A stretch of DNA of 34,666 nucleotides, taken from sequence record DRR723986_4825, one strand, 5' to 3'. Below are positions 1-25,635 of this stretch, one piece after another; the first letter of the stretch is position 1, and each line of letters starts with the position of its first letter. The position numbers were made by a program, and so were the translations under genes. The notes beneath the pieces were generated by a model. It did not search any database, had not been told where the DNA came from, and was given only the letters and a program-made list of their open reading frames with translations.

Positions 1-179
1 CAGCTTCCCCGAAGCAGCCGTTCGACACATTGCGCAGAATTTTTGTTGGCCAGAAGGCAGCTATGCGGACTCAACGGTCATTCATCGCGCGACCAATCAA
101 GTGCAAAAACGCCGATTTTGTGTATAGTTTCGGTAACCGCAATTCAGAATCAGAAATTTGTTCCAAAAGGAGTTTCGAC

Positions 180-1607
180 ATGGGTTGGTGTAAGAGTTTA
201 GGGACCATCAAAGCGCTGGCTTTTGGGGTGGTAGTCGCGACCGCAGGTCAGGCGGAGGACTTTGACCCATCGAACGCCAACACGGCCGACCGCATGACCT
301 ATCACCGAGCAGTTGATGCCGCTGTTTGGGCCATGCCTTTGATGAATTTCAAATTCTACATCGATGCCCTCGCCCGGGCCGGGGTGGGGCCGAACGACAT
401 TGGCTATAATTCGAAGGTGCAAGACTGGCGTTTCCAGACCGCAACACCGAACAACACAACTCCCTACATACACGCGTATTGGAACATCAAGGACGGGCCG
501 GTTGTGTTCGAAATGCCTGCGTCGGTTGAAGGGATTGGCATCTTCGGGACCGTTATGGACGCGTGGCAACGTCCGCTCGACGATGTAGGCTCAAAGGGGC
601 GCGACCGCGGCCTTGGGGCAAAATACTTGTTGGTGCCACCTAATTACGATGGCCCGCTGCTCAGGAATGCACTGGTCTACGAGCAGCAGACGAATTTCGG
701 CTTCGCAGTTCTCCGCCCGATTATCGCCGGTGGTCCGACTGAAGAGAACCTCGCAAAGGCCACCGCGCTGACCAAGCAGATCAAGGTCTATCCGCTTTCC
801 GAAGCCGGGGGAGAGGCCGCAATTAATTACGTGGATGTCTACGGCGTGCCGCTGGAAATGACGCCCAAGATGGACGGCGCGATTTACGGCCTTATCCACG
901 AAATGATTGGCGAGGAAGTCGTTTTGGACCGCGACCTTGCCATGATGGGCGCGCTCGCGCGCATTGGTGTCAAGCGTGGCGAACCCTTCGAGCCTGACGC
1001 AAAACTGCAAGCGATTTACGACGCCGCCGGCCCCGAGGCACTCGAATACATGATCGACCAGTACCACCGTGTACTCAATCCATTTGTGTTCGAAGGGAAG
1101 AAATGGTCTGCGCTTGTCCCCGATGGGTCGCGAGAGACAGAATGGAGCTACGAATATCCATCGTACTATGATTATGTGGCACGCGGCGCGCTTTACTATG
1201 CGATCATCACCAGCGTTAAGAATTACGGGACCGCGACCTACTACCTCGATCTGGCGGAGACACCGGATGGAGAATGGCTTGAAGGCGACCGCAACTACAA
1301 AATTACCGTGCCTGCCAATGTTCCGGTCCGCGATTTCTGGTCCATCACAACCTACGATCTGGTGACGGCGTCCTATCTGCGTGACATCGAGCCAAGCACG
1401 ATTGATTCCAACATGGCTGATGTCGTTAAGAACGATGACGGCACCGTTGACATATACTTTGGGCCCAAGGCTCCGGTGGGAAAAGAAAGCAACTGGCTCC
1501 CAACCGATCCGGAACGCCGTTTTTTCCTGCTCGCTCGGTTCTACGGTCCAGAGCCTACCTTGCTCGACAGTAGCTTTGAACTGAACGATATGGAGCGGAT
1601 GGATTGA
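180..1607 (+). CDS. DUF1254/DUF1214 domain-containing exported protein
   Basis: ATG at 180 after AGGAG RBS; signal-peptide-like N-terminus; motifs TPNNTTPY, GPVVFEMP, DAWQRPLDDVG, YLLVPP, FWSITTYD, DGTVDIYFGP, NWLPT, RFYGP typical of the family. Confidence 0.88.
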   Translation: MGWCKSLGTIKALAFGVVVATAGQAEDFDPSNANTADRMTYHRAVDAAVWAMPLMNFKFYIDALARAGVGPNDIGYNSKVQDWRFQTATPNNTTPYIHAYWNIKDGPVVFEMPASVEGIGIFGTVMDAWQRPLDDVGSKGRDRGLGAKYLLVPPNYDGPLLRNALVYEQQTNFGFAVLRPIIAGGPTEENLAKATALTKQIKVYPLSEAGGEAAINYVDVYGVPLEMTPKMDGAIYGLIHEMIGEEVVLDRDLAMMGALARIGVKRGEPFEPDAKLQAIYDAAGPEALEYMIDQYHRVLNPFVFEGKKWSALVPDGSRETEWSYEYPSYYDYVARGALYYAIITSVKNYGTATYYLDLAETPDGEWLEGDRNYKITVPANVPVRDFWSITTYDLVTASYLRDIEPSTIDSNMADVVKNDDGTVDIYFGPKAPVGKESNWLPTDPERRFFLLARFYGPEPTLLDSSFELNDMERMD

Positions 1608-1615
1608 AAGAATAG

Positions 1616-1645
1616 AACGTCCACTTCGGGCTCACAGCCGACTTG
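1616..1645 (+). repeat. Copy of ~30-bp intergenic palindromic repeat (12-6-12 type)
   Basis: AACGTCCAC-TTC-GGGCTC-ACA-GCCGACTT, 8 nt after the DUF1254 stop; related copies at 54-82 and 1774-1803. Confidence 0.6.
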
Positions 1646-1984
1646 CGGCGGTGCAGCACCTGATCTTGCACCAAAAGGCCACCGCCGGTGGTCTGATCTG
1701 CCCGCCGGATGCCCGAAGTCAGCCCTTTCTGGACATTGACACAAATTCCCCTAGCGACCCTATTGCGGGTTCCAATGGCTGCTTTGAGCGATAGTTATGC
1801 ATTGCAAAGTCAAGGTATGGTCCAAACAACGCGCATTCGTGGCGAAAGGGGTGATCACAAGGTCACTGACGGGGGAAACTTTGGACGGCATTGCTGACGA
1901 GAAAAAGTGGTTATCAGCGAAAACATGAACACGCTATGCAGATATCGTTCATAATAGAGATTGAGCAGATGAAAGTGAGCGAAG

Positions 1985-5671: not shown

Positions 5672-5818
5672 AGCCGGGCTGGCTATCGAAATAAAGGTCA
5701 TCCGTTTAAACGCGCCTCATCCCTCCTCTAATTGATCAAAAAATGGGCTCTATTAAAAAGAATGACGCCATGCGGCCGAAAAAAAAGTACTTCTGAATAA
5801 AAATATCAGAGAATACGA

Positions 5819-5844
5819 TGATCCAATTGGGAAGGTGCTCCGTA
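5819..5844 (+). promoter_or_regulatory. RpoE-type promoter
   Basis: TGATCC(5819-24)-N16-CGTA(5841-44) upstream of the fasciclin gene. Confidence 0.75.
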
Positions 5845-5890
5845 ATACCATTATTCCGCATGACGCGGGAAGTAACCAAATGGAGAAACC

Positions 5891-6376
5891 ATGTTTCGTA
5901 GAACTTTCCTCGCTACATCGGCAGCCGTTGCCATGTTTTCCGCATCCGTCACATTGGCAGACGGCCACTCAAAAGACATTGTCGATACTGCCGTTTCTGC
6001 CGGCTCTTTCGGGACCCTTGTGGCCGCCGTACAAGCCGCGGGTTTGGTAGATACCTTAAAGGGCGATGGACCGTTCACAGTCTTTGCCCCAACCGACGAA
6101 GCTTTCGCCGCCCTTCCTCAAGGCACAGTCGAGGGGCTGCTGAAGCCCGAAAACAAGGCCCAGCTGGTTTCTATCCTCACCTACCATGTTGTGCCCGGAA
6201 AAGTTCTGAGCACGGACCTGAGCAACAATATGATGGTCACGACAGTGCAGGGCAGCGATCTCTCGATTATGACCCAGGACGGCGTCACGATTAACGGCGC
6301 CAATGTTGTCTCGGCAGATATTGCGGCGTCCAACGGCGTCATCCACGTGATAGATGCGGTCATTCTGCCGAAATAG
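5891..6376 (+). CDS. Fasciclin (FAS1) domain protein
   Basis: [49 protein letters not shown] twin-arginine-like leader. Confidence 0.96.
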
Positions 6377-6495
6377 CCAACCGAACAAGTTACGCGCCTT
6401 TTCGAGCTTTGACTCCCAGAGGTGCGTATCTGCATGAACGCACAGCGAGACTTCGCTGATCAGCTTGATCGATGAGAACCTAAAGGATTAGAAAC

Positions 6496-7002
6496 ATGAT
6501 GAAAGCACTTGCCCTATCCGCTGCATCAGCAATGCTGGCGCTCCCGGCACTGGCCCAGGTGACGGTCTCATTTATCGAAGGCGCGCCAAAGGACCGGTTT
6601 GTGATTGAAAACACCGGGCGCTGTGAGTTGGCCGCGACGATCCTCGCCATAGATCTGAAAACGGCGGCATCCGGTCTCGTATTTGATGTCACCGGGAGCG
6701 GGCCCGGCGTTGAGGTCTTTCAACCTTTCGAGCTCGTTTCCGGGGAAGATCTCGTTCAACGGCATTCAATGATTGCAGATGGTGATACGACAGTGACCTT
6801 GGAGCTTTCCAGTCTGGCACCCGGCGAAACCGTGGGTTTTACGATTGATATCGATGACACGAGTGGTCGCTCTGAAACCATGGTCGCCGGAAATGAGATT
6901 TCTGGAGCCGAAGTAACCATGAAAACACTTGGGCAAGATTATATCGGAGCCATGTCAGCCAAAGCACAGGCGGTCCTGCCTGTTTCAGGCTGTGCGACGT
7001 GA
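6496..7002 (+). CDS. Secreted protein of the Roseobacter 'aggregation factor core'-annotated family
   Basis: Signal peptide ending ALA; EGAPKDRF and GLVFDVTGSGPGVEVFQPF motifs recalled from this family; function unknown. Confidence 0.6.
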   Translation: MMKALALSAASAMLALPALAQVTVSFIEGAPKDRFVIENTGRCELAATILAIDLKTAASGLVFDVTGSGPGVEVFQPFELVSGEDLVQRHSMIADGDTTVTLELSSLAPGETVGFTIDIDDTSGRSETMVAGNEISGAEVTMKTLGQDYIGAMSAKAQAVLPVSGCAT

Positions 7003-7010
7003 AAAGGAAT

Positions 7011-8045
7011 ATGCCCCTCAAAGAGATGACCTTTTCACCCCGATTGATGCCGTCATTACTTGGGTCGATGGACGTTCAGACCGTCATCAGCGCAAGCGGC
7101 GGCTCCACATGTCGAGGCTGAGGCCCCGCTTCATGAAGCGCAACCAATCCGCATCGGTGGGCCTGCAACGATGAGAGTTTGCACTGCCTGCAATCCATAG
7201 AAAACCACGCGCCTTAGGTGGGGAGAAACTGGGTTGTGGTCGACGAGGAAACGCCTGACCTTCAGTCTCTCTCTGACAAACTGCGTGTCAAAGTCACGTT
7301 GATTTTTCATCATGAAATTCTTGCAGAGCTCGCGGGTTTTCTCCCTACTTTTAACTCCTTGGGCAATGAAACCTTTCTGTGGCGGATACCTTGTCTCAGC
7401 GAGCGGTTCATATGCTTTGACGATGATGTCTTCCTGAGCGCACCTTTGAAACCCACTGATGTGTTTCAGGGTTCCCCCCTGTGCTTCGCTGGCAGTGGGT
7501 GGAATACGCAGAAACCTTGAAAAAACCGCTCATGCGGCGAGACCGGTCAAAATTCAATCACTACATGCAACGGAATGCTACGCGGGTGTTAGGTTTTGAA
7601 GACACCCGATTGTTCGCATCCGCCCATGTCGTTCATCCGATGCTGCGGTCAGTCGTCCCGAATGTTTGACCGACACAAGAGCGCTTTTGTCGACGATATT
7701 CGCCACCGCTTTCGTGATCTGAGTCAGTTCTGACCCTAGCGCCTATTTATTTATGCCAGCATAGCGGCCCAGAACGCGGTTTTGATACGCGTTCCAGACC
7801 ACCTCCATATCAAAAGCGGGCAAAGCCTTGATCGCTGCCCGACTGAAATCCTATCCTTGTTGGGGGAAGGGGCAAATTCGGCGTCTAAATTTTTGTGCGT
7901 TAATGACCTGCCTCAGTTTGAAATGGTGGTTCCCGAGGCCCGCGAATGGATCAGTTTAGCTATTGGAGGCTTCGTCGATCACCAAGCTTTGCGTATCAAA
8001 AAAGAACCTTCCTCAATCGCCAATGGGCCCACAGATCTTATCTGA
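7011..8045 (+). pseudogene. Stealth family hexose-1-phosphoryl transferase (CR1-CR4), disrupted
   Basis: PIDAVITWVDG (CR1), NDESLHCLQSIENHAP* and PTFNS...LSERFICFDDDVF (CR2), HVVHPMLRS (CR3), FLCVND (CR4) spread over different frames; TAG at 7215-7217 replaces the conserved Trp. Confidence 0.85.
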
Positions 8046-8103
8046 TGACCTATTTTTAGAGCAGGTTTTTGACCTCCATGACGCAGCACAAGTCAGCGCT
8101 TAG

Positions 8104-8165
8104 GATGACTGCTTTGCGCAGATAACGTACTTTGCAAAGTCACGCGGACGGACCACAGCCGCCGC
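8104..8165 (+). repeat. Intergenic repeat copy (30-bp palindrome + CTTTGCAAAG extension)
   Basis: GATGACTGCTTTGCGCAGATAACGTACTTTGCAAAGTCACGCGGACGGACC aligns with 11774-11835 and 22238-22273. Confidence 0.8.
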
Positions 8166-8319
8166 TGGCCAGCCGATCTGGTGCCGCGCTGCAGCTTCAC
8201 AAAACCCGCCATTCGTGCGCCGTGCGGCATTCTCGAAAGGCGAGTGACCAACATGCGGGACAAAGCGCCTATCCGCTGTATTTGCGCCAATGGCTGCTTA
8301 CGGAAATCAGTGCCTGACA

Positions 8320-8337
8320 AAAACGGTCGTTTTTGGC
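8320..8337 (+). repeat. 18-bp direct repeat, left copy (att/res-like)
   Basis: AAAACGGTCGTTTTTGGC, identical to 11415-11432. Confidence 0.85.
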
Positions 8338-8404
8338 CAACCACCCTACTCCAGCCTCCAAGCTAAATGACACTCGGATCAAGACGCAATGTCGACTCCA
8401 ATTT

Positions 8405-8743
8405 TTAGGGCGCGCACTTGCCAAGTATGAGAACTGTCTGTGTCCAAATAGACTCGCCGTCTTCGTCGGTGCACCTAGATTCTCCAGGATCGAAACCGAT
8501 AAATTCAGGAGATTGACAGTCCGAAAGAGCTTCGCAATGTGCAGAAGCATCGACCAACCACTTTCGCATGATACCGTTCAGCATGCGCTCTTGCTCGTCA
8601 TCAGAGTAATTGTTGCAGCTCTCAACCTTAACTGAATAGGTAACGCTGATGTTGAATTCCCCGCCACACTCTAGTGACAGCTCGTCACGTGAAGGAATTT
8701 TGATGTCCCGTTTCAAACCACTTGCCATTTGTTTTTCCTTCAT
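8405..8743 (-). CDS. Small acidic Cys-rich hypothetical protein
   Basis: 112 aa ORF with 6 Cys; ATGA overlap with the upstream stop; alternative start at 8728 after AAGGA. Confidence 0.7.
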   Translation of the reverse strand: MKEKQMASGLKRDIKIPSRDELSLECGGEFNISVTYSVKVESCNNYSDDEQERMLNGIMRKWLVDASAHCEALSDCQSPEFIGFDPGESRCTDEDGESIWTQTVLILGKCAP

Positions 8744-10371
8744 TTGAAAGTTGGATCGCCGCTGATCACAAGATATTCGCCTGCGTTTCCTAGGCTCGTG
8801 TTGATCCTAGTCTCCCATTCGATACCGGTACCCGGAAAGTGAAGGGGGTATCCAGCAATCTTGATGCGAAAAATAGAGATCAAAGTAGCCAGGAAACCTA
8901 TTATCGGTCGCGTTAACACGCTTGTTATCCACCCTAGTATTTGGTTGGCCCAACTGGGCCAGTCACAAAAAGAGAGCTTAATGCCTTGAGTTGTCAAACG
9001 TGCTCTTAAGTATATTCCATCTGAAGGAAACGTTGGAAAAGCTGAGATTCCAAAGTGTGGGTCAGGTTTCAAATCTACACATGGACCGTGGCAGCGCCAC
9101 TTACCGAATTTTTTAGGATCAAAGTCGAAATGACAAACCCTTGCAAACCCGCCTATCGTCGCGTCAGCAGTGACATTGACCCCGCCGGTAACAACCTGAG
9201 CTCGCCCGTTTTCGACCGCCAAGCTCCAACCGGCTTCTGCCTTTACAAGTCGGTCGAGTTGCTTGCTACCCTGCCAACCCTCCGAAATTTTTAGCTGGGA
9301 ATTCGCGACAGAGTCGAAAAGTTTATCGTTTGATAGAAGGAAAATGTTCTCAGGATAGTTCGTTGTCGCAGAAGGTTTTGAAATTTCTCTCAAGGCTTCA
9401 ACCTCAGATTGGCTTCTTTCCGCTAAATTCTCGATCCAGTCTACGGCATCTGAGTGGCTGATCTCCTCAGAACTCAAGCCCCGTTTTACCTGTTCATCAG
9501 GAATAAATTTCTCTTTCTCTGTGAACTCGCGATATCTCTGAGTAAGCTCGCTTGCTGCTACCTGAAGGTCTGAATGGGATGGACCAAATGTTGGTATGAT
9601 CTGAGCACCGACGATCAGGTAGCCTTCATCAAGTAGCAGGTAGTCTGCTTGGAGAGCGACACCATCAACCAACTCGATGGCACGGGGGAGTTCGAATTGC
9701 TGTACAAAATTTCTAATTTGGGTGTTAAGAACATTGTTCAGCAGTAACAAGATTAGCTGCTCGACCTTCGCACACCAAACTGGATCGTCAGATGACCAAG
9801 GGTTTATTCTTGGGTTAGTCGTGCTGGAACCAGGATCAACAATTTTAGACCGTATTTCAGTGGCGATGACTGAGAGTGGTTTTGAAAAAGCAATTTTTAT
9901 GGGTTCAAGCTTTACTGCTCTGCCGCCTGCTCCGTCATCTTCTAGAAACACAGCGGCACGGCAGGATAAGTCCCAAGCGAAATCAACGCTTAACTTAACA
10001 TTTGACATATCCTGGCCGTCAAAAACATCTACGGTAAACTCGACCTTAGACGATGAAAGTGACAGATTTGGTGGTGCTTTTGTTTCGTCTGCAAAGCTGG
10101 GTAGCTCACTTCTTTTCTCAAGGAGATGCCGCTTCCAAACTTTCATGAACCGTGTTGCAGTTATCGGGCGGCCAAACGAAAATTTAATCGGATTGGCGAC
10201 GTGAAATGTTATTCGGATCCAGTCATCAAACTCCTTAATCATTGTGCTGCCTGTGTAGATCGCCGGATTGCCTATCTTATGCGCCTTTGAAAATCTGTTA
10301 AGGAAAATTTCGTTCAATCCACCGGCTACTTGAACACCAGCGTCTGACAACTTTTGATATGGAATCGGCAT
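8740..10371 (-). CDS. Hypothetical protein, possible tandem TULIP (BPI/LBP-like) fold
   Basis: 543 aa ORF with AAGGA RBS; two similarly organised halves, each ending in amphipathic helix-Pro-strand-'YL(I/V)' pattern; fold call is by eye only. Confidence 0.75.
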   Translation of the reverse strand: MPIPYQKLSDAGVQVAGGLNEIFLNRFSKAHKIGNPAIYTGSTMIKEFDDWIRITFHVANPIKFSFGRPITATRFMKVWKRHLLEKRSELPSFADETKAPPNLSLSSSKVEFTVDVFDGQDMSNVKLSVDFAWDLSCRAAVFLEDDGAGGRAVKLEPIKIAFSKPLSVIATEIRSKIVDPGSSTTNPRINPWSSDDPVWCAKVEQLILLLLNNVLNTQIRNFVQQFELPRAIELVDGVALQADYLLLDEGYLIVGAQIIPTFGPSHSDLQVAASELTQRYREFTEKEKFIPDEQVKRGLSSEEISHSDAVDWIENLAERSQSEVEALREISKPSATTNYPENIFLLSNDKLFDSVANSQLKISEGWQGSKQLDRLVKAEAGWSLAVENGRAQVVTGGVNVTADATIGGFARVCHFDFDPKKFGKWRCHGPCVDLKPDPHFGISAFPTFPSDGIYLRARLTTQGIKLSFCDWPSWANQILGWITSVLTRPIIGFLATLISIFRIKIAGYPLHFPGTGIEWETRINTSLGNAGEYLVISGDPTFK

Positions 10372-10672
10372 CGTGTCGTCCTTAATGAACTATGTAAAAA
10401 ATATCTAATCAGGTTTTTATCGAAGCCGACGAGTTACGTAAAGTCAAGGCGGTTGTGATTTGGATCAAGATTTCTGAAAGCAGATCAGATCAAAGAGACA
10501 TAGCTGAGGCCTTGAGTACCCCCCATTTTAATGGAGGATTACCCTTGTAGGTCAACATCGGTGCGGTAATGTGGAAAAAGACTATTGCGAAACTGCCTCA
10601 GATTCGTGAATTTACAACCGATCTTCTCGTGATCAAGTTTCTCGATTCACACTCTAAATATTGGAAGTAAAT

Positions 10673-11392
10673 ATGTTTTTAAAAAAGAATATTCCTCTTT
10701 CGACCGTCGTGCTTTTGTCTTTGGCGGCTTGTAGTAGACCTATGACGGACGGCGAAATATCGTACAGCGGAGAGATCATTTCTCAAGGCTTGAACTTCGG
10801 GGAAGTCCGTTTTTCTGGGCAAGAAACTCAAGGTATCAGGCGGGCAGAGCGCCAATTAGCGCGGGAGGTTCAGCAACTTCTTGAAGCGCCCGGCAATGAA
10901 GAAAGCGCTAACAGGTTGATGTCTAGTCTACCGTCACTGTTCGGTGCTGATGCAATTGCAATCGGAAATACAGTCTTCTTTGACCGAGACGTATATTCGT
11001 TCGACTTTTCAACGAGCACCATTGATAGTGATAGATGGCTTATGGCGCACGAAGTTACCCACGTCTGGCAGTGGCAAAACAAAGATGTAACAGGCTATAC
11101 CTTTACGAAGATTGTTTCCGAACATCTAGAATTTGAGGGCGATGTCTACGAGTATACTCTGATTGATGGTAAGCGATTTACCGAATATCGCTTTGAGCAA
11201 CAGGGAGCGATTGTTCAATGCTATGCGATGCTTCGCCAGATCAGCCCAAATGATCCATTGACCCTCAGGCACGAACAAGTCATCCGCTCAGAGTTTCCCC
11301 TGGATGCCATGCTTGAATTAGTTGGTTCAGACAATGATGGGGTAGTCAGGGTTAGAGAAGAAATCGATTTAAATGCGTGTGACGGAAGATAG
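10673..11392 (+). CDS. Lipoprotein with HExxH zinc-metallopeptidase motif (DUF4157-like)
   Basis: Lipobox LAAC, RPMTDGE, AIAIGNTVFF, LMAHEVTHVWQ, YRFEQQG. Confidence 0.8.
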   Translation: MFLKKNIPLSTVVLLSLAACSRPMTDGEISYSGEIISQGLNFGEVRFSGQETQGIRRAERQLAREVQQLLEAPGNEESANRLMSSLPSLFGADAIAIGNTVFFDRDVYSFDFSTSTIDSDRWLMAHEVTHVWQWQNKDVTGYTFTKIVSEHLEFEGDVYEYTLIDGKRFTEYRFEQQGAIVQCYAMLRQISPNDPLTLRHEQVIRSEFPLDAMLELVGSDNDGVVRVREEIDLNACDGR

Positions 11393-11414
11393 ATTAGATG
11401 TGAACTGGGCGGTT

Positions 11415-11432
11415 AAAACGGTCGTTTTTGGC
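11415..11432 (+). repeat. 18-bp direct repeat, right copy (att/res-like)
   Basis: AAAACGGTCGTTTTTGGC, identical to 8320-8337; followed by further TGCCA/TTGGC motifs to 11521. Confidence 0.85.
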
Positions 11433-11669
11433 ACTGACGGCGCGACTTCCAAAATCACTGAAAAATCTTGTGCCACAAACCCTTGGCAAAACTCAGTTTG
11501 ATTTTGGCAAGTTTTTGGCCATCCTTGAAAACCGGACATTCACGCGATGCGCAGCAAATAGCAAAGTGGCTCCTTGCAGTCATGCGGCGTTGCAATGAAA
11601 TCTACAGTTTCGAGACCGCTTGAATGTCGGCTTCCAACATAGCGGTATGAATGGCTTGCGCCCGCAGAG

Positions 11670-11840
11670 AATGTCCGCAATCCGCCCGATGTGTAGGACG
11701 GCCATGTCAGCTTTGGGCTGACTGCGGTCATCTGAAGGTTTTCGCAACCAACTTACGCTGACCAAAATGATCGAGCGGCAGCTCTGCGCAGATTGCGACC
11801 TTTGCAAAGTCTCGCGGACTGACCAAAGCAGACCTTGCAG
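11670..11840 (+). repeat. Composite intergenic repeat (three palindromic units)
   Basis: Units with spacers CCGCCC (11670), GGGCTG (11704) and GCGCAG (11774); same order as 22144-22273; 25 bp TGCGCAGATTGCGACCTTTGCAAAG (11785-11809) identical to 22249-22273. Confidence 0.85.
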
Positions 11841-12021
11841 TGGCACCTAACTGCTACCTTGCAGCGCTACCAAGCCAGTCGTTTGACACGTCACCTAGCA
11901 GATTGGAGCCATTGGCACTGACGCTAGGCAGAACCTACATTCACAAAACAGAAAACCTGCGCCTTCGATTGCACGCCAAGATTTTGGGCTTGGGTGTTTT
12001 AGCCAATCAGCAGTCGTCACA

Positions 12022-13131
12022 TCACAAGTAATTCAACATTTTGCTGATCCAAAAGAGGATCTCAGCCAGCACGCCAATTGCACCGGCCTCATCTGTGATT
12101 ATCAGAACTGTGCCAGAAGCGCCCAGTTGCACGGCCTCGGTTGGGACATCCGCCGGTATATCCATCTTCACGATATACTGAGAGCCGCCGCCAACTTCGC
12201 GAATAGATGGCAAGCCATTGCGGGGCGAAAACACGCCTTCCGCAGACCCGAATGGGATTGCCGTTATTGGCGCCGAAATTTCGGTACCGGGCAAAGTACC
12301 TAGCGCAACCCGCAGGATGTCACCAACCGCAACGTTTTGTCGGCTGGTTTGTGGGAGAGACGCAACGAATACACGATCGGATGGCGAGGCGAAGCTGAGT
12401 ACGCCAGAAACCGGCGCGACGCGATCTCCGACACGCAAATCAAGCGCTGTGACCACTCCGTCTGCAGGAGCACGCACGACCGTTTGCTCCAGTGCCCAAG
12501 TTGCTTTAACAAGAGTTTCTTGGGCTTCTATGACGCCAATATCAACATCGCCGATTGTCGCCGATATCCGTCGCTGAAGGCTTGCTCTGCGCGCCTTGGC
12601 GCCACGAATGCCCGCTGTGAGTTGCTCAATTGTTGACACCGCTTCCTGCATTTGGAACCCGGCAGAGGCGCCTCTTTCCTCGAGTACGACAATGTCGTCC
12701 CGACGTTGGATTCCAAATTTTAGCTGGGCTTCGAGGCTTTCGATTTCTGCGTCTGCAGCCTGCAAATCAAATTTCAACTGTTCGGCTGCTGAGAACGCAG
12801 CTTCCAGTCCTGCCTCCGCGCTCGCGACATCTGCGACCATTGTGGTCGGATCAATTTTGAAAAGAACATCACCCTTCTTGATTGGCACATTTGGTGTGAC
12901 CGAGACTTCCGTCACGGTGCCCGACACATTGGGTTTGACCTGGATCACCACGCCCTGAACCGAGACACTTCCGGTGGGTGTAGTGTGGTTCAACGCCCCC
13001 ACGACGACCAATGCAATCACGAGCGCAATACCGTAAACGCATGTCTTCCACGCGGTGTTCCAGGGCAACAAGTTGAATTTTGAGAACACGAGCCAAATGG
13101 CTCCAAAGTATAACCCCAGAATGATCAGCAT
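12022..13131 (-). CDS. HlyD family membrane fusion/secretion protein (YiaV/YibH-like)
   Basis: Two N-terminal TM segments, PNVSGTVTEV...KKGDVLFKIDP, coiled coil, TVVRAPADGVV; AGGAGG RBS before ATG 13131. Confidence 0.9.
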   Translation of the reverse strand: MLIILGLYFGAIWLVFSKFNLLPWNTAWKTCVYGIALVIALVVVGALNHTTPTGSVSVQGVVIQVKPNVSGTVTEVSVTPNVPIKKGDVLFKIDPTTMVADVASAEAGLEAAFSAAEQLKFDLQAADAEIESLEAQLKFGIQRRDDIVVLEERGASAGFQMQEAVSTIEQLTAGIRGAKARRASLQRRISATIGDVDIGVIEAQETLVKATWALEQTVVRAPADGVVTALDLRVGDRVAPVSGVLSFASPSDRVFVASLPQTSRQNVAVGDILRVALGTLPGTEISAPITAIPFGSAEGVFSPRNGLPSIREVGGGSQYIVKMDIPADVPTEAVQLGASGTVLIITDEAGAIGVLAEILFWISKMLNYL

Positions 13132-13297
13132 TATTTGCGCGCCTCCTAGTCGAATTTCCGCTCTCACGTCCATCTACCTGTGTTCAGGCCTCGCAAGAGA
13201 GTGCTGGATTTATACAAAGATGTTTTTGGCTATGTCCACTCGGACCAGACCAAACAATCTTTCTGTTCTGTCTCGGAGCCTCAATGGGCACCAAGTT

Positions 13298-13335
13298 GAA
13301 AAGACGCCCGCAACCTTAGGTGGCGGCGGACGTTT
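13298..13335 (-). terminator. Possible intrinsic terminator after the sulfatase
   Basis: Imperfect GC-rich hairpin followed by TCTTTT on the minus strand, just past the stop codon. Confidence 0.35.
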
Positions 13336-13346
13336 GACGGATGTTG

Positions 13347-15095
13347 CTAGCCGTTGATGTTTTTCGCCAAGCTAGGATCGAACGGTAATTCGTCGAGGTG
13401 TTCGATATACTCCAGCGGATCAAAGGGCATGTTCTGCAGAGCTTGTGGAGGTTCGGCTAGAGCTTTAATTCCGGGCGTTGCATTGCTAATCCCAGTCCAA
13501 GGAATGCCATGTGTTTCCGGTGAATCTGGATACTTCTTTTTCCATAACTCATGACGCAACCGCATCCGATTGAAAGGTGTCTTCAAATGGACAAGCTGGA
13601 TCAGCATCGGCAACATCTCCCGAGGATCGGGTGGGAGGAAATAGAAGGCCGCGGGTATGCCGCTTGCATCTCCAACAGGATCTGGGGAGATCCAGTGACG
13701 CTTGTAGTCTCCCTTGACGGTCGCCCCCAATTGCGAGCCAGCATAGATGAAGACGTGGTCTCGCCGGCTGTAAGTATCTCCGTTGAGAAGTAACGAAGTT
13801 TGATCGATGCCGTCCACGATCCGATCAGTAGGGATATGCTGTGTCGCGCCGGCAATGCGTGCAAATGTTGTGAACAGATCGGTTTCATGGATGATATCAC
13901 CTACTGGGCCTGGCTTAATAGTGCCGGGCCACCATGCTTGCGCGGGAACACGGACACCGCCTTCAAGGAAATCGCCTTTACCACCACGGAAAATGGTCTG
14001 GTTCATACCAGAAGCAGGGGGAGGATCATGTGCCATTGGTCCATTGTCCGCCATCGCAATTACGAGGGTGTTCTCTTCAATGCCCAACTCTTGCAGCTTG
14101 GCAACAATTTGACCCATAAATGGATCGATATTGCATTCCAAAGCTTCGTGCAAAAGACTGCGACCGACGGAACACTTCTCCGGCAGAGGCAACATTGTCG
14201 TCATGATAGGCCAATTGGCGACGTAAAACGGTTTGTTCGCTTTGGCACTTCGCTCAATGAAATCGAGTGTGCGACGCTGCGATTCAGGATCGATCTGTTT
14301 GTAACTTTCGAAGCTATTGTCCCCCCATTGGCGGCTTTCGCCTCCTTTGGTTCCCTCACCGATCATCACCCAGTCCTTGGTGATAAATGTGTCGTCCATC
14401 ATGTAGGGGTCTTCGGGAAGCATATCTTGAAACAGCCCAATCGAGGCATTTGCAGCTTCGCCTGCACGTGAATGCATCGCCAGAATGGCATTGTACCCAG
14501 TGAAGAATGATTCATCAAAGCCTTGGTTGTGCGGATAGCTTTGCTCGATATCGCCAAGATGCCATTTTCCGTGGAAGGCTGTTGCATAGCCGACTTCCGA
14601 CAAAACTTCTGCAATTGTTACCTCCCTTTCATTTAGGCCGTGGCTTTCAAGAAGCATACCGATATTGTAGCTACCGCTACGAATGGCAAGCCGTCCAGTA
14701 GCGGAAGCAGCACGGCTGGGAGTGCAACCGACTTCGGTGTACATCCGTGTAAATAACATGCCTTCCTCAGCCATCTGGTTCAGAACAGGCGTTTTCATGC
14801 CCCGGACCATCTGAATCTCAGGAATGCCAACATCGCCATATGCTGTGTCGTCCCACATGACATGAATGATATTCGGCGGCCTTCCGAATTTTTCCTGGAG
14901 GGCTGCAAGTCGCTCGTCGAGGGCCTTATCTTCAACGGCCCAACGCTGGCTGTGTTGGGCTTCGAGAATGTAATATTCTGCGTCGTGGATGATGGGGGCT
15001 TCAGAAATGGCGGGCCCAGCTATCACTCCTGTGATGATCGATGCTACGGCAGCGAGGCCGAAGCGATGACGTATTGGAGGAGCGTGGATTTTCAT
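13347..15095 (-). CDS. Arylsulfatase-family (formylglycine-dependent) hydrolase
   Basis: PPNIIHVMWDD, CTPSR (CxPxR), GKWHLG, ADNG, GGKG..EGGVRVP motifs; signal peptide. Confidence 0.93.
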   Translation of the reverse strand: MKIHAPPIRHRFGLAAVASIITGVIAGPAISEAPIIHDAEYYILEAQHSQRWAVEDKALDERLAALQEKFGRPPNIIHVMWDDTAYGDVGIPEIQMVRGMKTPVLNQMAEEGMLFTRMYTEVGCTPSRAASATGRLAIRSGSYNIGMLLESHGLNEREVTIAEVLSEVGYATAFHGKWHLGDIEQSYPHNQGFDESFFTGYNAILAMHSRAGEAANASIGLFQDMLPEDPYMMDDTFITKDWVMIGEGTKGGESRQWGDNSFESYKQIDPESQRRTLDFIERSAKANKPFYVANWPIMTTMLPLPEKCSVGRSLLHEALECNIDPFMGQIVAKLQELGIEENTLVIAMADNGPMAHDPPPASGMNQTIFRGGKGDFLEGGVRVPAQAWWPGTIKPGPVGDIIHETDLFTTFARIAGATQHIPTDRIVDGIDQTSLLLNGDTYSRRDHVFIYAGSQLGATVKGDYKRHWISPDPVGDASGIPAAFYFLPPDPREMLPMLIQLVHLKTPFNRMRLRHELWKKKYPDSPETHGIPWTGISNATPGIKALAEPPQALQNMPFDPLEYIEHLDELPFDPSLAKNING

Positions 15096-15121
15096 TGGAG
15101 GATCCTCATTGTTGAAGGCTA

Positions 15122-15376
15122 TTAGTTGTTTGGCTGATCAAAAGGATTGGCGCTGTTTGTGAAAGCACTGCGCAGGTCCTGTTCGAGCTCCAAAAGAGCC
15201 GCTGAAATGTCATCGATTGCGGGCTGATTCTGGGCGCGTCGTTGGTGGCCAAGGTCTTCTAAAAGACAGGCATAATCTGTGACGATCTCCCGGAACATCT
15301 CATTGTCTGCGATTAGTTGGTCGAGTTTCGTACGGTGCGGGAGAAACAGCTCTACCAATTCTTGCGGGCATTTCAT
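15122..15376 (-). CDS. Small helical hypothetical protein
   Basis: ORF directly upstream of the sulfatase, same strand; FREIVTDY...LLELEQDL helical pattern; start uncertain (15376 ATG or 15388 TTG). Confidence 0.65.
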   Translation of the reverse strand: MKCPQELVELFLPHRTKLDQLIADNEMFREIVTDYACLLEDLGHQRRAQNQPAIDDISAALLELEQDLRSAFTNSANPFDQPNN

Positions 15377-15506
15377 TAAAATCGCCAACCTCTGCTTATC
15401 CTTCGAAGTTTAGCGATCTTGCCATTGGGAAGGTAAGTGTCATATCGTGAGACTCGCCCCTGTCACGTCAGAAGAAACCCGTTTAAAGCACTGTATTTAT
15501 TTAATA

Positions 15507-16826
15507 ATGAAAATCACCCATCTCCCAACACATGACGATATTGATCGGGCTTTGTCACGAGTCACAAACAGCGAGATGCTTCAAAACTCTGATCGCTCCA
15601 AAGAATTTCTTCAGTATGTGGTGAGGGAATCTCTTGCCAACCGCGCAAACTCAATCCGAGGAAAAACCATCGCGGCTGACGTGTTCGGTCGGGACCCCAC
15701 GGAGAAAGACAGCGACAATGTTGTGCGAGTCGAGGCAAGAAGGTTGCGCCGCAAGCTTGGAGACTACTATCAACAAGAAGGCAAAAATGACCTGCTGCGC
15801 ATCCATATTGACTCTGGCGGATATGTACCTCGATTTGAAGTCGTGGAAGTTGTTGAGCCATCGCCGGGGGAGCCCTCCGGTGCTAAACTTGAAAAGTGGA
15901 AAGTGCTCGTGGTCGCCTGTGTTTTAGTCGTCCTAATTGGGCTCGGTTACTTGGCGCTTCAGTATGCCATAGGCCCACAGTTGATTGCTATACCATCGCA
16001 GCAACAGGCCAGTGAACGCAAAGCATTACGAGAAAAATCTCTGGCAACTTTGCAAGCGGCGAATCTTGATCTTCAAGGGCGCAATTTGCTCTTTCCTCTG
16101 TTTGATCCGGACCGCCAGAAACTCGCGATATCGCTGTTTCAAAAATCGATGGAAATCGATCCAACCTACTTTGCCAGTTACGCAAGTGCAGCCCACAGCT
16201 TTGGGACATTGGCGTTGATGACGCCTTCTGGCCTGGATAGGGAAAAACTGCGATTGAAGTCTGTTGAAATGGCCGCAAAAGCGGTCGAGCTGGCGCCTCA
16301 GGAGGCGTGGGCCCAAGCCGCCAATGCGTGGGCCCACCATGTTTCAAGAGATTTTGATGCAGCGGTTCGTATTGTAGAACTCGCCCTGCAATTGGATCCG
16401 AACGATGCGAGCGTTTTGGACACGTACGGGTTGGTCATGCTTGTTAATGGAGAATTTGAGAAATCCGTTGCCGCCACCGGGCCTGACATATTGTATCAAG
16501 ACAATGGGTTGCGTCTTGGGCGACGCAATATTTTTGCTGTATCATCGTTCCACCTTGGGAAATACCAAAACACGCTGGATAGCTTGGCTCTTGCTGTCGA
16601 ACATGGCGATCCCGTGAGCGGCCCAACATTAGTGTTCACTGCGGTGGCTTATGAAGGGTTGGGACAAACAGAAAAGGCGAGGGCGGTTTTGCGCGAATTA
16701 AGAAGCACATATCCCGGGTTCCGTCCATATGCTGTGTTCTCTCAGTTCTATACAGAGCCAAAGGATGCACTGCAGATCCTTAGCTATTTGGTGCGCGCAG
16801 GGTGGAACGAAGATTGGATCGAGTAA
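15507..16826 (+). CDS. Membrane-anchored regulator: N-terminal winged-helix-like domain, TM helix, TPR repeats
   Basis: FLQYVVRE..IAADVFGRD..VVRVEARRLRRKL.DYY..GGYVPRF, then hydrophobic VLVVACVLVVLIGLGYLAL, then TPR-like repeats (AVELAPQ, ALQLDPND). Confidence 0.8.
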   Translation: MKITHLPTHDDIDRALSRVTNSEMLQNSDRSKEFLQYVVRESLANRANSIRGKTIAADVFGRDPTEKDSDNVVRVEARRLRRKLGDYYQQEGKNDLLRIHIDSGGYVPRFEVVEVVEPSPGEPSGAKLEKWKVLVVACVLVVLIGLGYLALQYAIGPQLIAIPSQQQASERKALREKSLATLQAANLDLQGRNLLFPLFDPDRQKLAISLFQKSMEIDPTYFASYASAAHSFGTLALMTPSGLDREKLRLKSVEMAAKAVELAPQEAWAQAANAWAHHVSRDFDAAVRIVELALQLDPNDASVLDTYGLVMLVNGEFEKSVAATGPDILYQDNGLRLGRRNIFAVSSFHLGKYQNTLDSLALAVEHGDPVSGPTLVFTAVAYEGLGQTEKARAVLRELRSTYPGFRPYAVFSQFYTEPKDALQILSYLVRAGWNEDWIE

Positions 16827-16955
16827 CTTACGAAGCTCGTTTTGTGGTTTTGGCCAACATAATTAGGAAGGCCGCTTTGACCAAGTGACGGCCATCAAAC
16901 GGCGCCCTCTGGCATCTTACTTGTATTTCGACAAAAAAAACGTGCCGATGCATCG

Positions 16956-17032
16956 AACGTCTCCTTTCGGCCCCAATCGGACATTCATGCTAAGTGCGGA
17001 GAACGGTATGTTTGAGCCCAAAATGAGACATT
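16956..17032 (+). repeat. Two copies of the ~30-bp palindromic repeat
   Basis: AACGTCTCC-TTT-CGGCCC-CAA-TCGGACATT (16956-16985) and AACGGTATG-TTT-GAGCCC-AAAA-TGAGACATT (17002-17032). Confidence 0.65.
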
Positions 17033-17112
17033 GACCAGTAGATAGTCCAAGGTAGCTGCCGGCCACAAAGGTTCTTTCCGCCAGGCTAGAACACCCCAAA
17101 TCTCCCATGCCT

Positions 17113-21962: not shown

Positions 21963-22143
21963 ATCACGCATCCTAAATGCACTAATCCGAGTAGAATGAT
22001 CGAAATACTTCACTCGATCAACCGAAACGTCTGTCTTGTGGGGGCAACTGCCGAGAATTGTCATGTCGACAAACTGCTATCGGTGGCCACACGCCATGCG
22101 GTGGTAGATTGCCGCAGAGCGGACCTTGGCGTTAGGTGCTGCG

Positions 22144-22300
22144 AATGGCTCTTTTCCGCCCTTCCTGCATGAGCGCGCCGGTTGCCCTGATGTTAGGCGA
22201 TGGGTCCGCTTTGGGCTGCCTGCAGCCATCCACTGGGGATGGCCGCTTTGCGCAGATTGCGACCTTTGCAAAGCGAGAGCGGATATCCGAAAGCTGCCGT
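22144..22300 (+). repeat. Composite intergenic repeat (three palindromic units)
   Basis: Units with spacers CCGCCC, GGGCTG (22201-22230) and GCGCAG (22238-22267); parallels 11670-11840. Confidence 0.85.
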
Positions 22301-22476
22301 ACACATGAACGCTGCGCACAGTGGTTTGGACCTCGGCCTGTGAGTTTCTTTTTGGTGCTGTATGCGCTCGCCAAATGGAAACCGCCGCAATTGGAAAACA
22401 GTATACTGCAACGCAGAGGAAAAACCGGACATACATCGCGGGTGTAGGGAAGGCTTGTGCAGTGGATGACTGCGGA

Positions 22477-22503
22477 TTTTCCACTATTGGTAATTGTGGA
22501 AAA
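22477..22503. repeat. TTTTCCAC-N11-GTGGAAAA palindrome
   Basis: Near-identical arms recur at 25253-25279. Confidence 0.7.
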
Positions 22504-22852
22504 TATGGAACGATCAGAGTGGTAAGAACCGAGAGCCGACCGTCGTGCCCAGCGCGGCTAACGGCGGTAGAGAGCGTATACCGGGCCTGTCAAATTCGTG
22601 CTGCGAGCGCAGCGCAAATATTTTTGCACATCAACAGTACTTCGTGCCGCAAAGCGGTCGGGAAACCGGTTATTCTTGCAACGTTCAAAAACCTTGAGAC
22701 CACGAACTTACAGATCGCGGAGATAGTGTTGAAGAAGTCGCCGATTAGGTGCCTGCTGGATGGAGGAGTGTCTTTGTTGATGCCGGTTTATGGGGCATCA
22801 ACGCCATCAACAAAGACTTGCTGCAGAGTGAAGTTGCGAATGCCCGCATTAC

Positions 22853-24091: not shown

Positions 24092-24191
24092 GGCTCACAT
24101 TCCTTAAAAAACCTGACCGATTCAGTCGGCCTTGACACTGTACTAGAACGTTGCAAATATATAAAAAAGAAGCATGTTGTTGATATGTTGT

Positions 24192-25097
24192 ATGTCGAAA
24201 TTTAATATATCAAATGTTGATGTAAAACTCCTCTCAATCTTTTGTGCGGTGTACGAAGAAGGTTCAATTTCACGCGCTGCGGAACGATTGAATTTGAGCC
24301 AGCCTCTTGTGAGCCACGCATTGGATCGCTTGCGCCTCGCTTTCAAAGATCCGCTGTTCGTACGTGCTGGACGTTCGATTGCCCCAACTGATAGAGCGCG
24401 GTTCCTTGCGCCAGAAATATCTGAACTGGTTCAAAGGCTGATTGGGCTGTCGGAACCTGAGACGCTCAATCTCAATGAGATTGAAACTCGATTTTGCTTG
24501 TCAGCAAATGACTTCGAGCGTCAATTGTTGGCCCCCAAGGTTTCGACCGAGCTCTTTCAGAGAGCCCCTCATGCATCGCTGCGTCTGATGGACACCAAGG
24601 ATACATTTGTTGAAAGCTTGAGGGCCAGAGAATACGATGTGGTGGTCACTCCGTTGGCACTACCAGATTACATGGACATTCACAGTTCGGCGCTTTTTGA
24701 AGACAATGTTCAGTGTTTCTTTGACAGCTCGATGCTCCATGCCGACGAAGTTCTATCCTGTTATGGCGAACTCGATCACGCTGAAGTTGATTTCGGTAGG
24801 ACCAAATCAAGGGTTATTGACCCGGCGTTGCTGCAACATGGGATTGTTCGTAAAATCAAGCTTGCGGCACCTAGCTTCGAGGCCTTGCCACCCCTACTGC
24901 AAGGAACGCGAATGGTTGCAACGCTACCTTCCCGTCTGAAATACGGTCTGTTCGCCGACTTTGAATGTGTGCCATTGCCATTCCCAACCGCAACATTCAC
25001 CTTTAATATGGTCTGGCACAAGGCGACACATTTGTCGGCAGCGCACCAATGGTTTCGGTCATTGGTCCGCGCGGCGGTACGAAATAAGGAAAACTGA
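24192..25097 (+). CDS. LysR family transcriptional regulator
   Basis: DVKLLSIF..EEGSISRAAERLNLSQPLVSHALDRLR..DPLFVR HTH; C-terminal WH...AHQWFR; divergent from the MFS gene. Confidence 0.95.
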   Translation: MSKFNISNVDVKLLSIFCAVYEEGSISRAAERLNLSQPLVSHALDRLRLAFKDPLFVRAGRSIAPTDRARFLAPEISELVQRLIGLSEPETLNLNEIETRFCLSANDFERQLLAPKVSTELFQRAPHASLRLMDTKDTFVESLRAREYDVVVTPLALPDYMDIHSSALFEDNVQCFFDSSMLHADEVLSCYGELDHAEVDFGRTKSRVIDPALLQHGIVRKIKLAAPSFEALPPLLQGTRMVATLPSRLKYGLFADFECVPLPFPTATFTFNMVWHKATHLSAAHQWFRSLVRAAVRNKEN

Positions 25098-25252
25098 GCA
25101 GCCTGGCAATCAGATGTTTCAGTCGAAAATGATGCCTTTAAACTAACTGAATATGTAAACAGGTGCTTGGTTCAGCGGCGAAATCAACCAAAATTCTCAA
25201 AGATCCACACTGTGTGAGTTCATGCGCTGCGCAGCAAAGGTTGGCACTACCA

Positions 25253-25279
25253 TTTTCCACTATCGGCCGTAGTGGAAAG
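25253..25279. repeat. TTTTCCAC-N11-GTGGAAAG palindrome
   Basis: TTTCCACTA/TAGTGGAAA perfect arms; extra half-site TTTTCCAC at 25361; matches 22477-22503. Confidence 0.7.
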
Positions 25280-25565
25280 TTTTGCGTTTCTAGCCCTTTG
25301 AAATCCAACCGTTTTCGCAATAAAAACAATGGCCGGCGGTTTCGAGGTATTGGCCTCCGGTTTTCCACTTTCAAACTACCATACGGGTGGGCATCAGAAT
25401 GACTGGTCAAGGGAAATCATGCTAAAGCCGAGCAACTGTTGCTGCAGATGCAAGTGTTCTCAGCATCAACAATAGTCGAACAAGCAAGAGGCTGCATAGT
25501 CCGCGTGGCAGACGACTAACACAGTCGTGCGAGTGTCCGCTTCCAGAATTACTGGACAAGAAGGA

Positions 25566-25635
25566 GAGGGCGGCTTCGGGTTGGCTCCGGTCATCAGCGC
25601 TAAACGAAGCGCAAGGCAGCTCCGAGCCCATCTTT
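25566..25635 (+). repeat. Degenerate copies of the ~30-bp palindromic repeat
   Basis: GAGGGCGGC-TTC-GGGTTG-GCT-CCGGTCATC and CAAGGCAGC-TCC-GAGCCC. Confidence 0.55.

Follow-up and report, generated by a model that had tools for sequence, protein, structure and literature searches.

Mosaic palindromic intergenic repeats are represented in the Alphaproteobacteria by the Rhizobium-specific intergenic mosaic elements (RIMEs). Integron cassettes have attC sites of R''-L''...L'-R' structure with GTTRRRY core sites, hold a single open reading frame (ORF) and share one orientation, and pdif sites flank modules on plasmids in alternating orientation. The targeting of extragenic palindromes by insertion sequences (ISs) is a property of repetitive extragenic palindromic (REP) sequences (PMC1525189) and is also known for the dRS3 repeat of Neisseria (PMC1797815). 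The authors of the Neisseria intergenic mosaic elements (NIMEs) proposed that the short repeats promote the exchange of adjacent genes (PMC1797815), as a preliminary description did for the intergenic repeats analyzed here, which lie in a stretch of 34,666 nt (the window) from sequence record DRR723986_4825.

The window is read here as chromosomal DNA of a Roseobacter-group bacterium (Rhodobacteraceae), from a flexible (hypervariable) region in which the long 3' and convergent spacers are full of mosaic repeats. These repeats would resemble the NIMEs or the bacterial interspersed mosaic elements (BIMEs) of Escherichia coli within a flexible genomic island and would serve as recombination substrates and IS targets, not as cassette sites of the dif/loxP type. 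The probability of this reading as a whole is put at roughly 0.55.

Repeat Families of the Window

At least 11 copies of a single 9-3-6-3-9 palindrome had been described in the window. Repeats do occur at these positions and exceed chance, but they fall into several families and the common palindrome is an idealized description. At up to three mismatches, nothing in the window matches the consensus AATGTCCGCTTTN6AAAGCGGACATT, and the claimed copies differ from it at many of its 24 specified positions (start 54, 9 mismatches; 1616, 7; 1774, 9; 8104, 7; 11704, 6; 11774, 10; 16956, 5; 17002, 9; 22201, 9; 22238, 7; 25566, 11). The 12-nt arms of the 11 copies are complementary at only 4–7 of 12 positions. 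Six consensus sites with up to eight mismatches are present in the window, against an average of 0.5 and no more than three in any of 50 shuffles. The half-site GCGGACATT occurs 20 times at up to one mismatch where 7.4 occurrences are expected, and 11 of these 20 fall within the intergenic 16% of the window (5,550 bases; P = 7e-5).

One of the families, type-B, is an element of at least 49 nt with an exact 25-bp core (TGCGCAGATnnCGnnCTTTGCAAAG) that is present in the copies at 8104, 11774, and 22238 (core starts 8115, 11785, and 22249). The core consists of two boxes, TGCGCAG-N9-CTTTGCAAAG, which are invariant at a fixed spacing around a variable 9-nt spacer, and CTTTGCAAAG is a perfect 10-bp palindrome. 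The first copy extends over 8104–8168 (plus strand, core 8115–8139, nhmmer E = 1.8e-13) and the second over 11767–11840 (plus strand, core 11785–11809, E = 8.8e-18), whereas the claimed copy 3 (1774–1840, plus strand) is a decayed type-B element of which 1802–1840 matches positions 63–101 of the type-B hidden Markov model (HMM) with E = 0.083. Type-A is a 27-nt unit found at 11706, 22204, and 25569. Claimed copy 5 (CATGTCAGCTTTGGGCTGACTGCGGTCATC, 11704–11735, plus strand) belongs to this family according to the repeat finder, and the match of a contig from run X1 stops within it at 11720; claimed copy 11 (25566–25595, plus strand) is a type-A-like unit with 78% identity to the copy at 11706 and 11 of 24 mismatches to the palindrome. 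Type-A directly precedes type-B at 22.2 kb, where the two form the composite R3 (22201–22294, plus strand, core 22249–22273; at least 11 G001 copies at 79–93% identity), and lies approximately 50 nt before type-B at 11.7 kb.

Two further modules, R1 and R2, recur below. R1 (1–70, plus strand) is a 70-nt module cut by the window edge, with at least 10 copies at 85–98% identity in G001 and a 99% identical copy in G051. The claimed copy 1 (54–83, plus strand, 9 of 24 mismatches) consists of the 3' end of R1 and the half-site GGTCATTC, which is also found at the orthologous place in G001. R2 is a 98-nt module (GGGCTCACAGCC...GAAGTCAGCCC, 1628–1725, plus strand) with sharp boundaries in six G001 copies, and it sits in the loop of a hairpin unit, AACGTCCACTTC...TTTCTGGACATT (1616–1737, plus strand). 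Short hairpin units of the type GTCCGC-TTT-GGGCnn-AAA-GCGGAC link the type-A, type-B, R1, R2, and R4–R6 modules, and all of these modules are separated or bounded by GCGGAC-type half-sites.

All claimed copies lie outside the ORFs accepted as genes, as stated in the preliminary description, and their location between unrelated modules was equally borne out. The repeats occupy the long, non-divergent spacers 1608–1984, 8046–8404, 11393–12021, 16827–17112, 22065–22852, and 25098–25708, which separate functionally unrelated gene blocks of three to six genes on both strands (3–10 kb each), and the short spacers and divergent promoter spacers of the window are free of them. That the cores all read the same way holds for the four type-B and three type-A copies, which are on the plus strand, but not for all units, and four of four type-B copies on one strand is not beyond chance (P = 0.125). 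The cores GAGCCC (17002) and CGGCCC (16956) correspond to the GGGCTC/GGGCCG type in reverse complement, which means that these units point the other way. The unit AACGTCTCCTTTCGGCCCCAATCGGACATT at 16956–16985 (listed without a strand) is the best hairpin unit of the window (5 of 24 mismatches, arms paired at 7 of 12 positions, center the reverse complement of the GGGCCG type), whereas the weak hairpin-like copy at 17002–17031 (likewise without a strand, 9 of 24 mismatches) is unsupported by the repeat searches. A partial inverted copy of the module upstream of type-B is located on the minus strand at 22113–22158 (nhmmer E = 0.0035, model positions 4–49).

The layout of a dif, pdif, or loxP site, to which the palindromes had been likened, is not what these units display. 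Besides the poor pairing of the arms, the 6-bp centers (GGGCTC, GGGCTG, GCGCAG, GAGCCC, and CGGCCC) differ between copies and partners for recombination of the Xer or Cre type would therefore not match. As arms that pair and centers that are shared define such sites, the dif/loxP reading fails, and the repeats are therefore classed as Roseobacter-group mosaic intergenic repeats.

Distribution and Placement in Rhodobacterales

The type-B core pattern is present at 120 or more loci in genome contigs, and 115 of the matches listed carry Rhodobacterales names, with 36 named genera. The two matches in Oligoflexia and Clostridia lie inside ORFs of 396 and 241 amino acids and look like chance. Among the aligned copies, one and the same type-B core has different modules on its flanks, at least five downstream and several upstream, which makes the arrangement a mosaic. 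Five relatives were chosen for the genome-wide analysis: "Rhodobacteraceae bacterium EL53" (G001), Aliisedimentitalea scapharcae (G002), Phaeobacter sp. SH40 (G003), Shimia sp. MIT910701 (G004), and Thalassobius sp. MITS945101 (G005). At up to two mismatches, these genomes contain 28, 6, 23, 8, and 5 type-B copies, respectively, and the reversed pattern used as a control has no match in any of the five.

The cores are predominantly extragenic: of the 134 cores (at 117 loci), 118 lie outside every ORF of at least 150 amino acids. The ORF caller used for the relatives is crude and based on length, and the 41 of 134 cores that fall in called ORFs of at least 110 amino acids are mostly in ORFs of 110–149 amino acids that are probably spurious. 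After these 41 cores and 21 at locus edges were dropped, 72 cores with two callable neighbors remained for a comparison of spacer types. Convergent spacers are enriched (26 out of 72 cores, background 135 out of 677, P = 0.001) and divergent spacers are depleted (9 out of 72, P = 0.036). Within tandem spacers, 18 cores are co-directional and 19 anti-directional with the genes, leaving no strand preference.

Three of the four complete chromosomes (G003, G004, and G002, but not G005) display significant clustering of the copies, as the preliminary description would predict, with a median nearest-neighbor distance of approximately 6–7 kb compared with 73–310 kb for random placement (P ≤ 0.0006). 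In G003, 13 of the 23 type-B copies lie within 1.67–1.93 Mb. The strand bias that had been anticipated alongside the clustering was not found: of the 29 pairs of neighboring copies less than 20 kb apart, 19 are on the same strand (P = 0.14), and the G001 clusters on C12 and C13 contain both orientations and inverted doublets. Copies spread evenly through core operons, with random orientation, had been named as the pattern that would speak against the cassette idea; the orientation is indeed not special, but the placement is far from even.

The composites of G001 show a recurrent order in which R1 follows type-B (R3-R4B-R1 in L143, L144, L145, and L148). Two blocks of an amidohydrolase gene with a divergent AraC regulator gene were observed in G001 (L132 6770–9600 and 15909–18584), and a type-B element in the same orientation comes after each of them. 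A recent duplication of these two blocks on C3 was considered and rejected, with 68% identity over 174 nt compared with 83% for the repeat.

A Hypervariable Repeat Cluster in Phaeobacter sp. SH40

The repeat cluster of G003 was compared with the close relative G407, with which the shared DNA is 93–98% identical. Only approximately 35% of the 20-kb cluster stretches L137 and L138 and less than 6% of the 20-kb stretch L139 are found in G407. The 20-kb control stretches L177 and L178, in contrast, are found to 100% and 99%, respectively, with 93–94% identity across controls. No type-B core is present in 60 kb of controls (three stretches, L177 and L178 among them), compared with 10 in the 75-kb cluster, and the half-site density of these controls is half that of the cluster. 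The non-ORF fraction is higher in clusters (0.19–0.20) than in controls (0.13–0.17), and the clusters also contain transposases of the IS110 and IS1182 families. The G003 cluster is read as a flexible genomic island in which mobile DNA accumulates, and by their likeness to it the window and the G001 clusters are read as probable flexible islands as well.

A separate repeat of approximately 340 nt with iterated GGGACACTTCC motifs was observed in the G003 cluster (L137 4133–4476). It is present in at least three G003 copies at 90–93% identity and also in G407, G405, and G416. Its end coincides exactly with a synteny break, and in appearance it is similar to the end of a transposon or to an iteron array.

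Ends of Homology at Base Level

The closest relative found for the window is G001, with 84% identity in the DUF1254 gene, 75% in the photolyase gene, and 69% in the DUF3604 pair; nothing above approximately 75% identity to the window was found in a sample of 401 family genomes. Upstream of the DUF1254 gene, homology between the window and G001 starts at the half-site GGTCATTC directly after R1. Downstream of the same gene, the window carries the hairpin arms around R2 where G001 has no more than a degenerate hairpin-like stretch, which is empty and has the same ACATTGA at its end. No R1–R5 repeat was found at the borders of the 13.4 kb that lie between the DUF1254 and photolyase genes in G001. 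Contigs of run X1 cover 8201–11720 of the window with 7 differences in 3,194 aligned letters (99.8% identity), and one of them diverges from the window past 11720, the center of the type-A unit. Between G003 and G407, homology stops at AGCGCCCGCTTCCA|GCCCGAAGCCGACATT, the center of a hairpin unit, and two more block ends lie in or adjoin mosaic repeats; the G407 assembly itself breaks at repeats, which limits the junction analysis. All four junctions available at base level fall at the repeats, as the preliminary description had led one to expect, although four are too few for statistics and aligners also stop at repeat edges.

The X2, X4, and X5 joints from 11.7 kb to 22.2 or 25.6 kb were considered as deletions and rejected; their shorter sides are at most 34 nt and they are read as other copies of the A+B composite elsewhere. 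Run X1 leaves 5800–7800 and 12470–16471 uncovered and reaches a cover of at most 0.22 in the other parts outside 8201–11720, and X2, X4, and X5 have depths of approximately 2.5 or less over 8468–11135 and approximately 0.4 or less over 12470–16471; no conclusion is drawn from such gaps. A search for empty-site pairs in 40 kb of collinear G003/G407 controls found none, and the sole break of more than 100 nt is a replaced spacer without mosaic repeats.

Recombinases and Insertion Sequences near the Repeats

No recombinase or transposase domain was identified in the 40 window ORFs scanned with Pfam, in agreement with the preliminary description. The relatives do encode tyrosine recombinases (PF00589; 13 matches in G001 and 14 in G003), and several of the G001 genes are located near clusters, one on C2 at 108 nt from a core and others on C9, C13, C8, and C3 within 0.5–7 kb. 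The predicted proximity to an integrase gene was thus found at several clusters, but a single cognate family was not: the integrases near clusters in the two genomes are heterogeneous and several are fragments of 116–180 amino acids. A comparison of nine of them (BLASTP, E ≤ 1e-3) gave three matching pairs, one with 31% identity over 340 amino acids and two short ones of 30 and 51 amino acids, and the possibility that they form one cognate family was rejected.

Insertion sequences of the IS110 family use the repeats as targets in G003, which has 24 IS110-family matches, many of them in or near repeat-rich stretches (4 matches in G001). The five G003 copies of one element, IS110-a, are 99.7–99.9% identical to each other, and four of the five are inserted between GTC(C/T)GGCT and TTGGGCCG, the center of a hairpin-like unit of which an uninterrupted homolog is present at L137 16810–16850. 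A second element, IS110-c, is inserted in two of three copies in the 9–10 nt spacer that separates the boxes of a type-B core in reversed orientation; alignment to an intact element reaches GACTTTGCAA on the left flank and begins at CTGCGC on the right flank, where it continues for more than 90 nt. The insertion point of IS110-c was settled by local alignment, automatic pairing to intact repeats having given no pairs. The use of extragenic palindromes as IS insertion targets, a REP-type feature, is therefore seen in G003. No Rfam family matched the IS ends at four IS110 loci, and hence no bridge RNA was identified.

An IS1182-family element was also observed directly against the left edge of a long mosaic, in G003 (L137 10981–12658) and twice in G417 (L168 2611–4268 and 8971–10643), with 73–74% identity. 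It either targets the left edge of the mosaic or carries the mosaic along.

Conservation and Structure of the Modules

The modules R1 and R2 are 93–99% identical among the window, G001, G051, and G002, compared with 64–84% for the shared genes. R2 is 86–96% identical to its G001 copies and 95% identical to the copy in G002, which belongs to another genus, and in full length it is present in only 3 of 401 sampled family genomes (93–96% identity, at least two genera). Such patchiness combined with so little divergence is more readily explained by recent movement than by an ancient functional RNA. A consistent terminal inverted repeat (TIR) or target site duplication (TSD) was not found across seven aligned R2 copies despite their sharp ends. 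R2 may be either a small mobile element or an RNA gene that has spread horizontally.

When folding was compared with shuffled sequences, R2 alone folded better (z = -2.95, multi-hairpin), and R1, R5, and the type-B regions did not. An alignment of 11 A+B composites gave a covariation term of 0.11 with double changes in only 2 of 22 pairs; it is the sequence and not the base pairing that is conserved in these composites. A search against Rfam returned no match at gathering thresholds, and with E values up to 5 a single chance match to a snoRNA.

Gene Content and Further Elements of the Window

The cargo of the window consists of ordinary chromosomal genes. According to the Pfam scan, the ORFs encode DUF1254/DUF1214, photolyase, glutathione peroxidase, TspO, fasciclin, HlyD-like, and sulfatase proteins, followed in the inventory by two DUF3604 proteins, a MetA-type outer-membrane protein, MFS, LysR, AzlCD, and MarR proteins, parts of a tripartite ATP-independent periplasmic (TRAP) transporter, an amidase, and a malonyl-CoA decarboxylase. 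No tRNA gene was found in the window. Blast comparison with related loci marked 1–70, 1624–1725, 8097–8258, 11662–11844, and 22204–22294 as repeated DNA.

The remaining modules are located in the spacers around 8 and 11 kb. R5 (8141–8270, plus strand) is a mosaic module downstream of the type-B element, with 77% identity to G001:C12:759998–760157 and weaker matches beside R1 copies. R4 (11562–11705, plus strand) is a stretch of hairpin units (GAATGGCTTGCGCCC..., AATGTCCGCAATCCGCCC...) with G001 matches at 70–77%. R6 (11415–11556, plus strand) is approximately 140 nt long, contains iterated TTTTGGC motifs, and ends in the half-site ACCGGACATTC. The TTTTGGC-type motifs occur in both orientations, and the terminal half-site is of the GGACATTC kind. 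Matches to R6 are present in 12 of 401 family genomes (74–92% identity), where the neighbors are unrelated, with no shared flanking genes. The first 18 nt of R6 recur exactly at 8320–8337 (plus strand) as the 18-mer AAAACGGTCGTTTTTGGC, a direct repeat of 11415–11432, so that the block from 8.3 to 11.4 kb is bracketed by an exact direct repeat. The three genes of this block (8405–11392) encode a 112-amino acid and a 543-amino acid protein without Pfam matches and a 243-amino acid protein with a weak match to an eCIS-core domain. The block was not found at the DNA level in the 401 family genomes and is 99.8% identical in the contigs of run X1.

Upstream of the type-B element at 8104, the region 6496–8045 contains three short ORFs of 168, 100, and 87 amino acids, with a Stealth CR2 domain in the middle one. 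The part 7039–7972 aligns as one 68%-identical stretch inside a single 397-amino acid ORF of G001 (L134 14456–15646), and the window copy therefore looks like a frameshifted pseudogene. Metagenome contigs carry 1–2 nt indels within this pseudogene-like stretch. A 27-nt palindrome (ATTTTCCACTAT...GTGGAAA) is present in two copies with 81% identity (22476–22504 and 25252–25278) that flank the MFS/LysR gene pair and look like operators.

Discussion

The repeats lie where gene blocks meet, and the alternatives to a mosaic of island repeats differ in what brings them there. The preliminary description took the palindromes for core sites of a tyrosine recombinase (dif/pdif/loxP-like or integron-like) and the window for a cassette array that is served in trans. 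Part of this idea stands, as the repeats do sit at block junctions, the copies cluster, homology stops at hairpin centers, and several of the 13 tyrosine recombinase matches of G001 lie beside clusters. A cognate recombinase, an integron-like array, and a shared orientation were not supported: the copies belong to several unrelated families whose arms pair poorly and whose centers vary, their orientation is random relative to the genes and only 19 of 29 neighbors are co-oriented, the integrases nearby are a heterogeneous set with several fragments, the scanned window ORFs include no recombinase, and the clusters of the relatives contain inverted doublets and mixed orientations. The repeats are thus not thought to be the cognate sites of a dedicated cassette recombinase, and the cassette-array model is considered most unlikely. 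A different enzyme is proposed if the repeats are natural targets of IS110-family recombinases (DEDD, bridge-RNA type) that, in place of RecA, occasionally move or invert DNA between sites and so shuffle gene blocks in trans. The abundance of IS110-family matches near repeat-rich stretches in G003 and the insertions of IS110-a into hairpin centers (four of five copies) and of IS110-c into the type-B spacer (two of three) agree with this proposal. It also has parallels in two sources, one on ISPpu9, which when inserted in a REP is reported to form circular intermediates in a "modular transposition" (PMC12288879), and one on dRS3, which was proposed as a site for a phage transposase or recombinase (PMC1797815). 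These insertions are nevertheless evidence of IS movement and not of host-gene movement, the scanned ORFs of the window include no IS110 element and G001 has only four matches, and the Rfam search of the IS ends identified no bridge RNA; IS110-driven shuffling is accordingly judged improbable. Just as improbable is the more far-reaching idea that the repeats are the cis half of a Roseobacter-wide exchange of gene blocks, in which the hairpins and the type-B core would be programmable targets of IS110-family or other trans-acting recombinases that capture, excise, and re-insert multi-gene blocks in flexible islands, an integron-like function with different sites and enzymes.

The two other alternatives assign the repeats no part in rearrangement. 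As purely selfish elements, similar to miniature inverted-repeat transposable elements (MITEs), they would be found at junctions only since the dispensable spacers of variable regions tolerate them. The patchy occurrence of a nearly identical R2 across genera, the conservation of R1 and R2 above that of genes, the enrichment in convergent and depletion in divergent spacers, and the higher non-ORF fraction of the clusters are all in line with such a view, which is weakened by the aligned R2 copies, in which no TSD or consistent TIR was seen, by the absence of the REP-associated tyrosine transposase (RAYT) from the five genomes, and by homology that breaks exactly at repeat edges or centers. Purely selfish repeats are therefore regarded as a possible but rather doubtful explanation. 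It is very unlikely that the type-B core and the hairpin units are cis elements conserved for a function of their own, for example as protein-binding sites, hairpins at transcript ends, or terminators. The invariant boxes at fixed spacing around a variable spacer, the palindromic CTTTGCAAAG, and the location mainly at gene 3' ends are what such elements might look like, but the copies show no strand preference relative to transcription (18 compared with 19), no covariation, and no Rfam match, and they are clustered instead of being spread over all operon ends.

Several observations weigh against the reading of the repeats as NIME- or BIME-like mosaics of a flexible island. The 5–28 type-B copies per genome are far below the numbers of classical REPs, for which more than 100 copies per genome are expected. 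The RAYT (Y1 transposase, PF01797) was found in none of the five genomes with a search that was positive in 6 of 14 reference genomes used as control, and the usual mobilizer of REPs is therefore missing. The local same-strand runs in G001 clusters (4 of 4 on C3, 4 of 4 on C8, and 3 of 3 on C5) are atypical of classical dispersed REPs. Tyrosine recombinase genes are located within approximately 10 kb of several G001 clusters, the four base-level junctions are all at hairpin centers or half-sites and are equally expected of a site-specific mechanism, and no RecA-mediated event between repeats was observed. Finally, all genome-wide statements derive from relatives whose genes are at most 84% identical to those of the window at the nucleotide level.

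If the repeats are mosaic elements of a flexible island, they may spread as small non-autonomous units and would be retained at sites that tolerate insertions. By providing dispersed homology and targets for ISs, they could turn the spacers into places where gene blocks are gained, lost, and rearranged, probably through RecA-dependent recombination together with IS activity.

The Roseobacter group comprises major marine heterotrophs, and much of its ecological diversity resides in flexible genomic islands whose assembly is poorly understood. Family-wide mosaic repeats would offer a concrete handle on island assembly, comparable to that provided by the NIMEs in Neisseria, based on their concentration in an island of the one relative compared, their position at the ends of homology blocks, the conservation of some modules above that of genes across genera, and the targeting by IS110-family elements. 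They are also of practical concern as they break short-read assemblies and generate spurious ORFs. No literature on REP, MITE, or mosaic repeats in Rhodobacteraceae or Roseobacter was found in a search outside of which lay subscription journals and supplementary files.

Among the known systems, dif, pdif, and loxP sites share with the repeats the nominal arm-spacer-arm layout and, as repeats, the position at the flanks of gene blocks; they differ in the paired arms and shared centers, and pdif sites in their location on plasmids as opposed to the chromosomal mosaics described here. Integron attC sites and clusters of attC sites lacking integron-integrases (CALINs) resemble the repeats as imperfect palindromes between gene blocks and in the same orientation within the window. 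The blocks here are multi-gene and 3–10 kb long with mixed gene orientation, the relatives have mixed repeat orientation, and the 40 scanned window ORFs include no integron integrase. The RIMEs are similar in their general description, and the family described here is found in Rhodobacterales.

The closer parallels are the mosaics of E. coli and Neisseria. The REPs and BIMEs of enterobacteria and pseudomonads and the REP doublets forming hairpins (REPINs) with RAYT transposases are extragenic imperfect palindromes in mosaics, with inverted doublets and a location at gene 3' ends (PMC2817692, PMC3116915), and the short imperfect palindromes of Rhodobacterales are likewise extragenic (118 out of 134 cores outside ORFs of at least 150 amino acids) and arranged in mosaics; the absence of RAYT in five of five genomes, the small type-B copy number, and the strong regional clustering set them apart. 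The NIMEs, in which inverted dRS3 repeats (ATTCCC-N8-GGGAAT) flank RS elements (PMC1797815), occur in a host group that differs at the phylum level, whereas the units here are of the GTCCGC type. The arrays of the window are, by contrast with NIMEs, short at 100–600 nt per spacer, the 25-bp two-box core of type-B has no counterpart stated for the NIMEs, and no link to natural transformation is known for the repeats here. The similarities are nevertheless extensive: in both cases short inverted repeats link many families of modules of 20–200 nt into arrays, the arrays include IS elements as well, differ from strain to strain, and lie beside variable genes, and the short inverted repeat is a target of a transposase or recombinase encoded by an element (PMC1797815). 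Judged by its sequence, with a GTCCGC-type unit in the place of dRS3, the repeat system of the window is an analog of the NIMEs and not a member of them.

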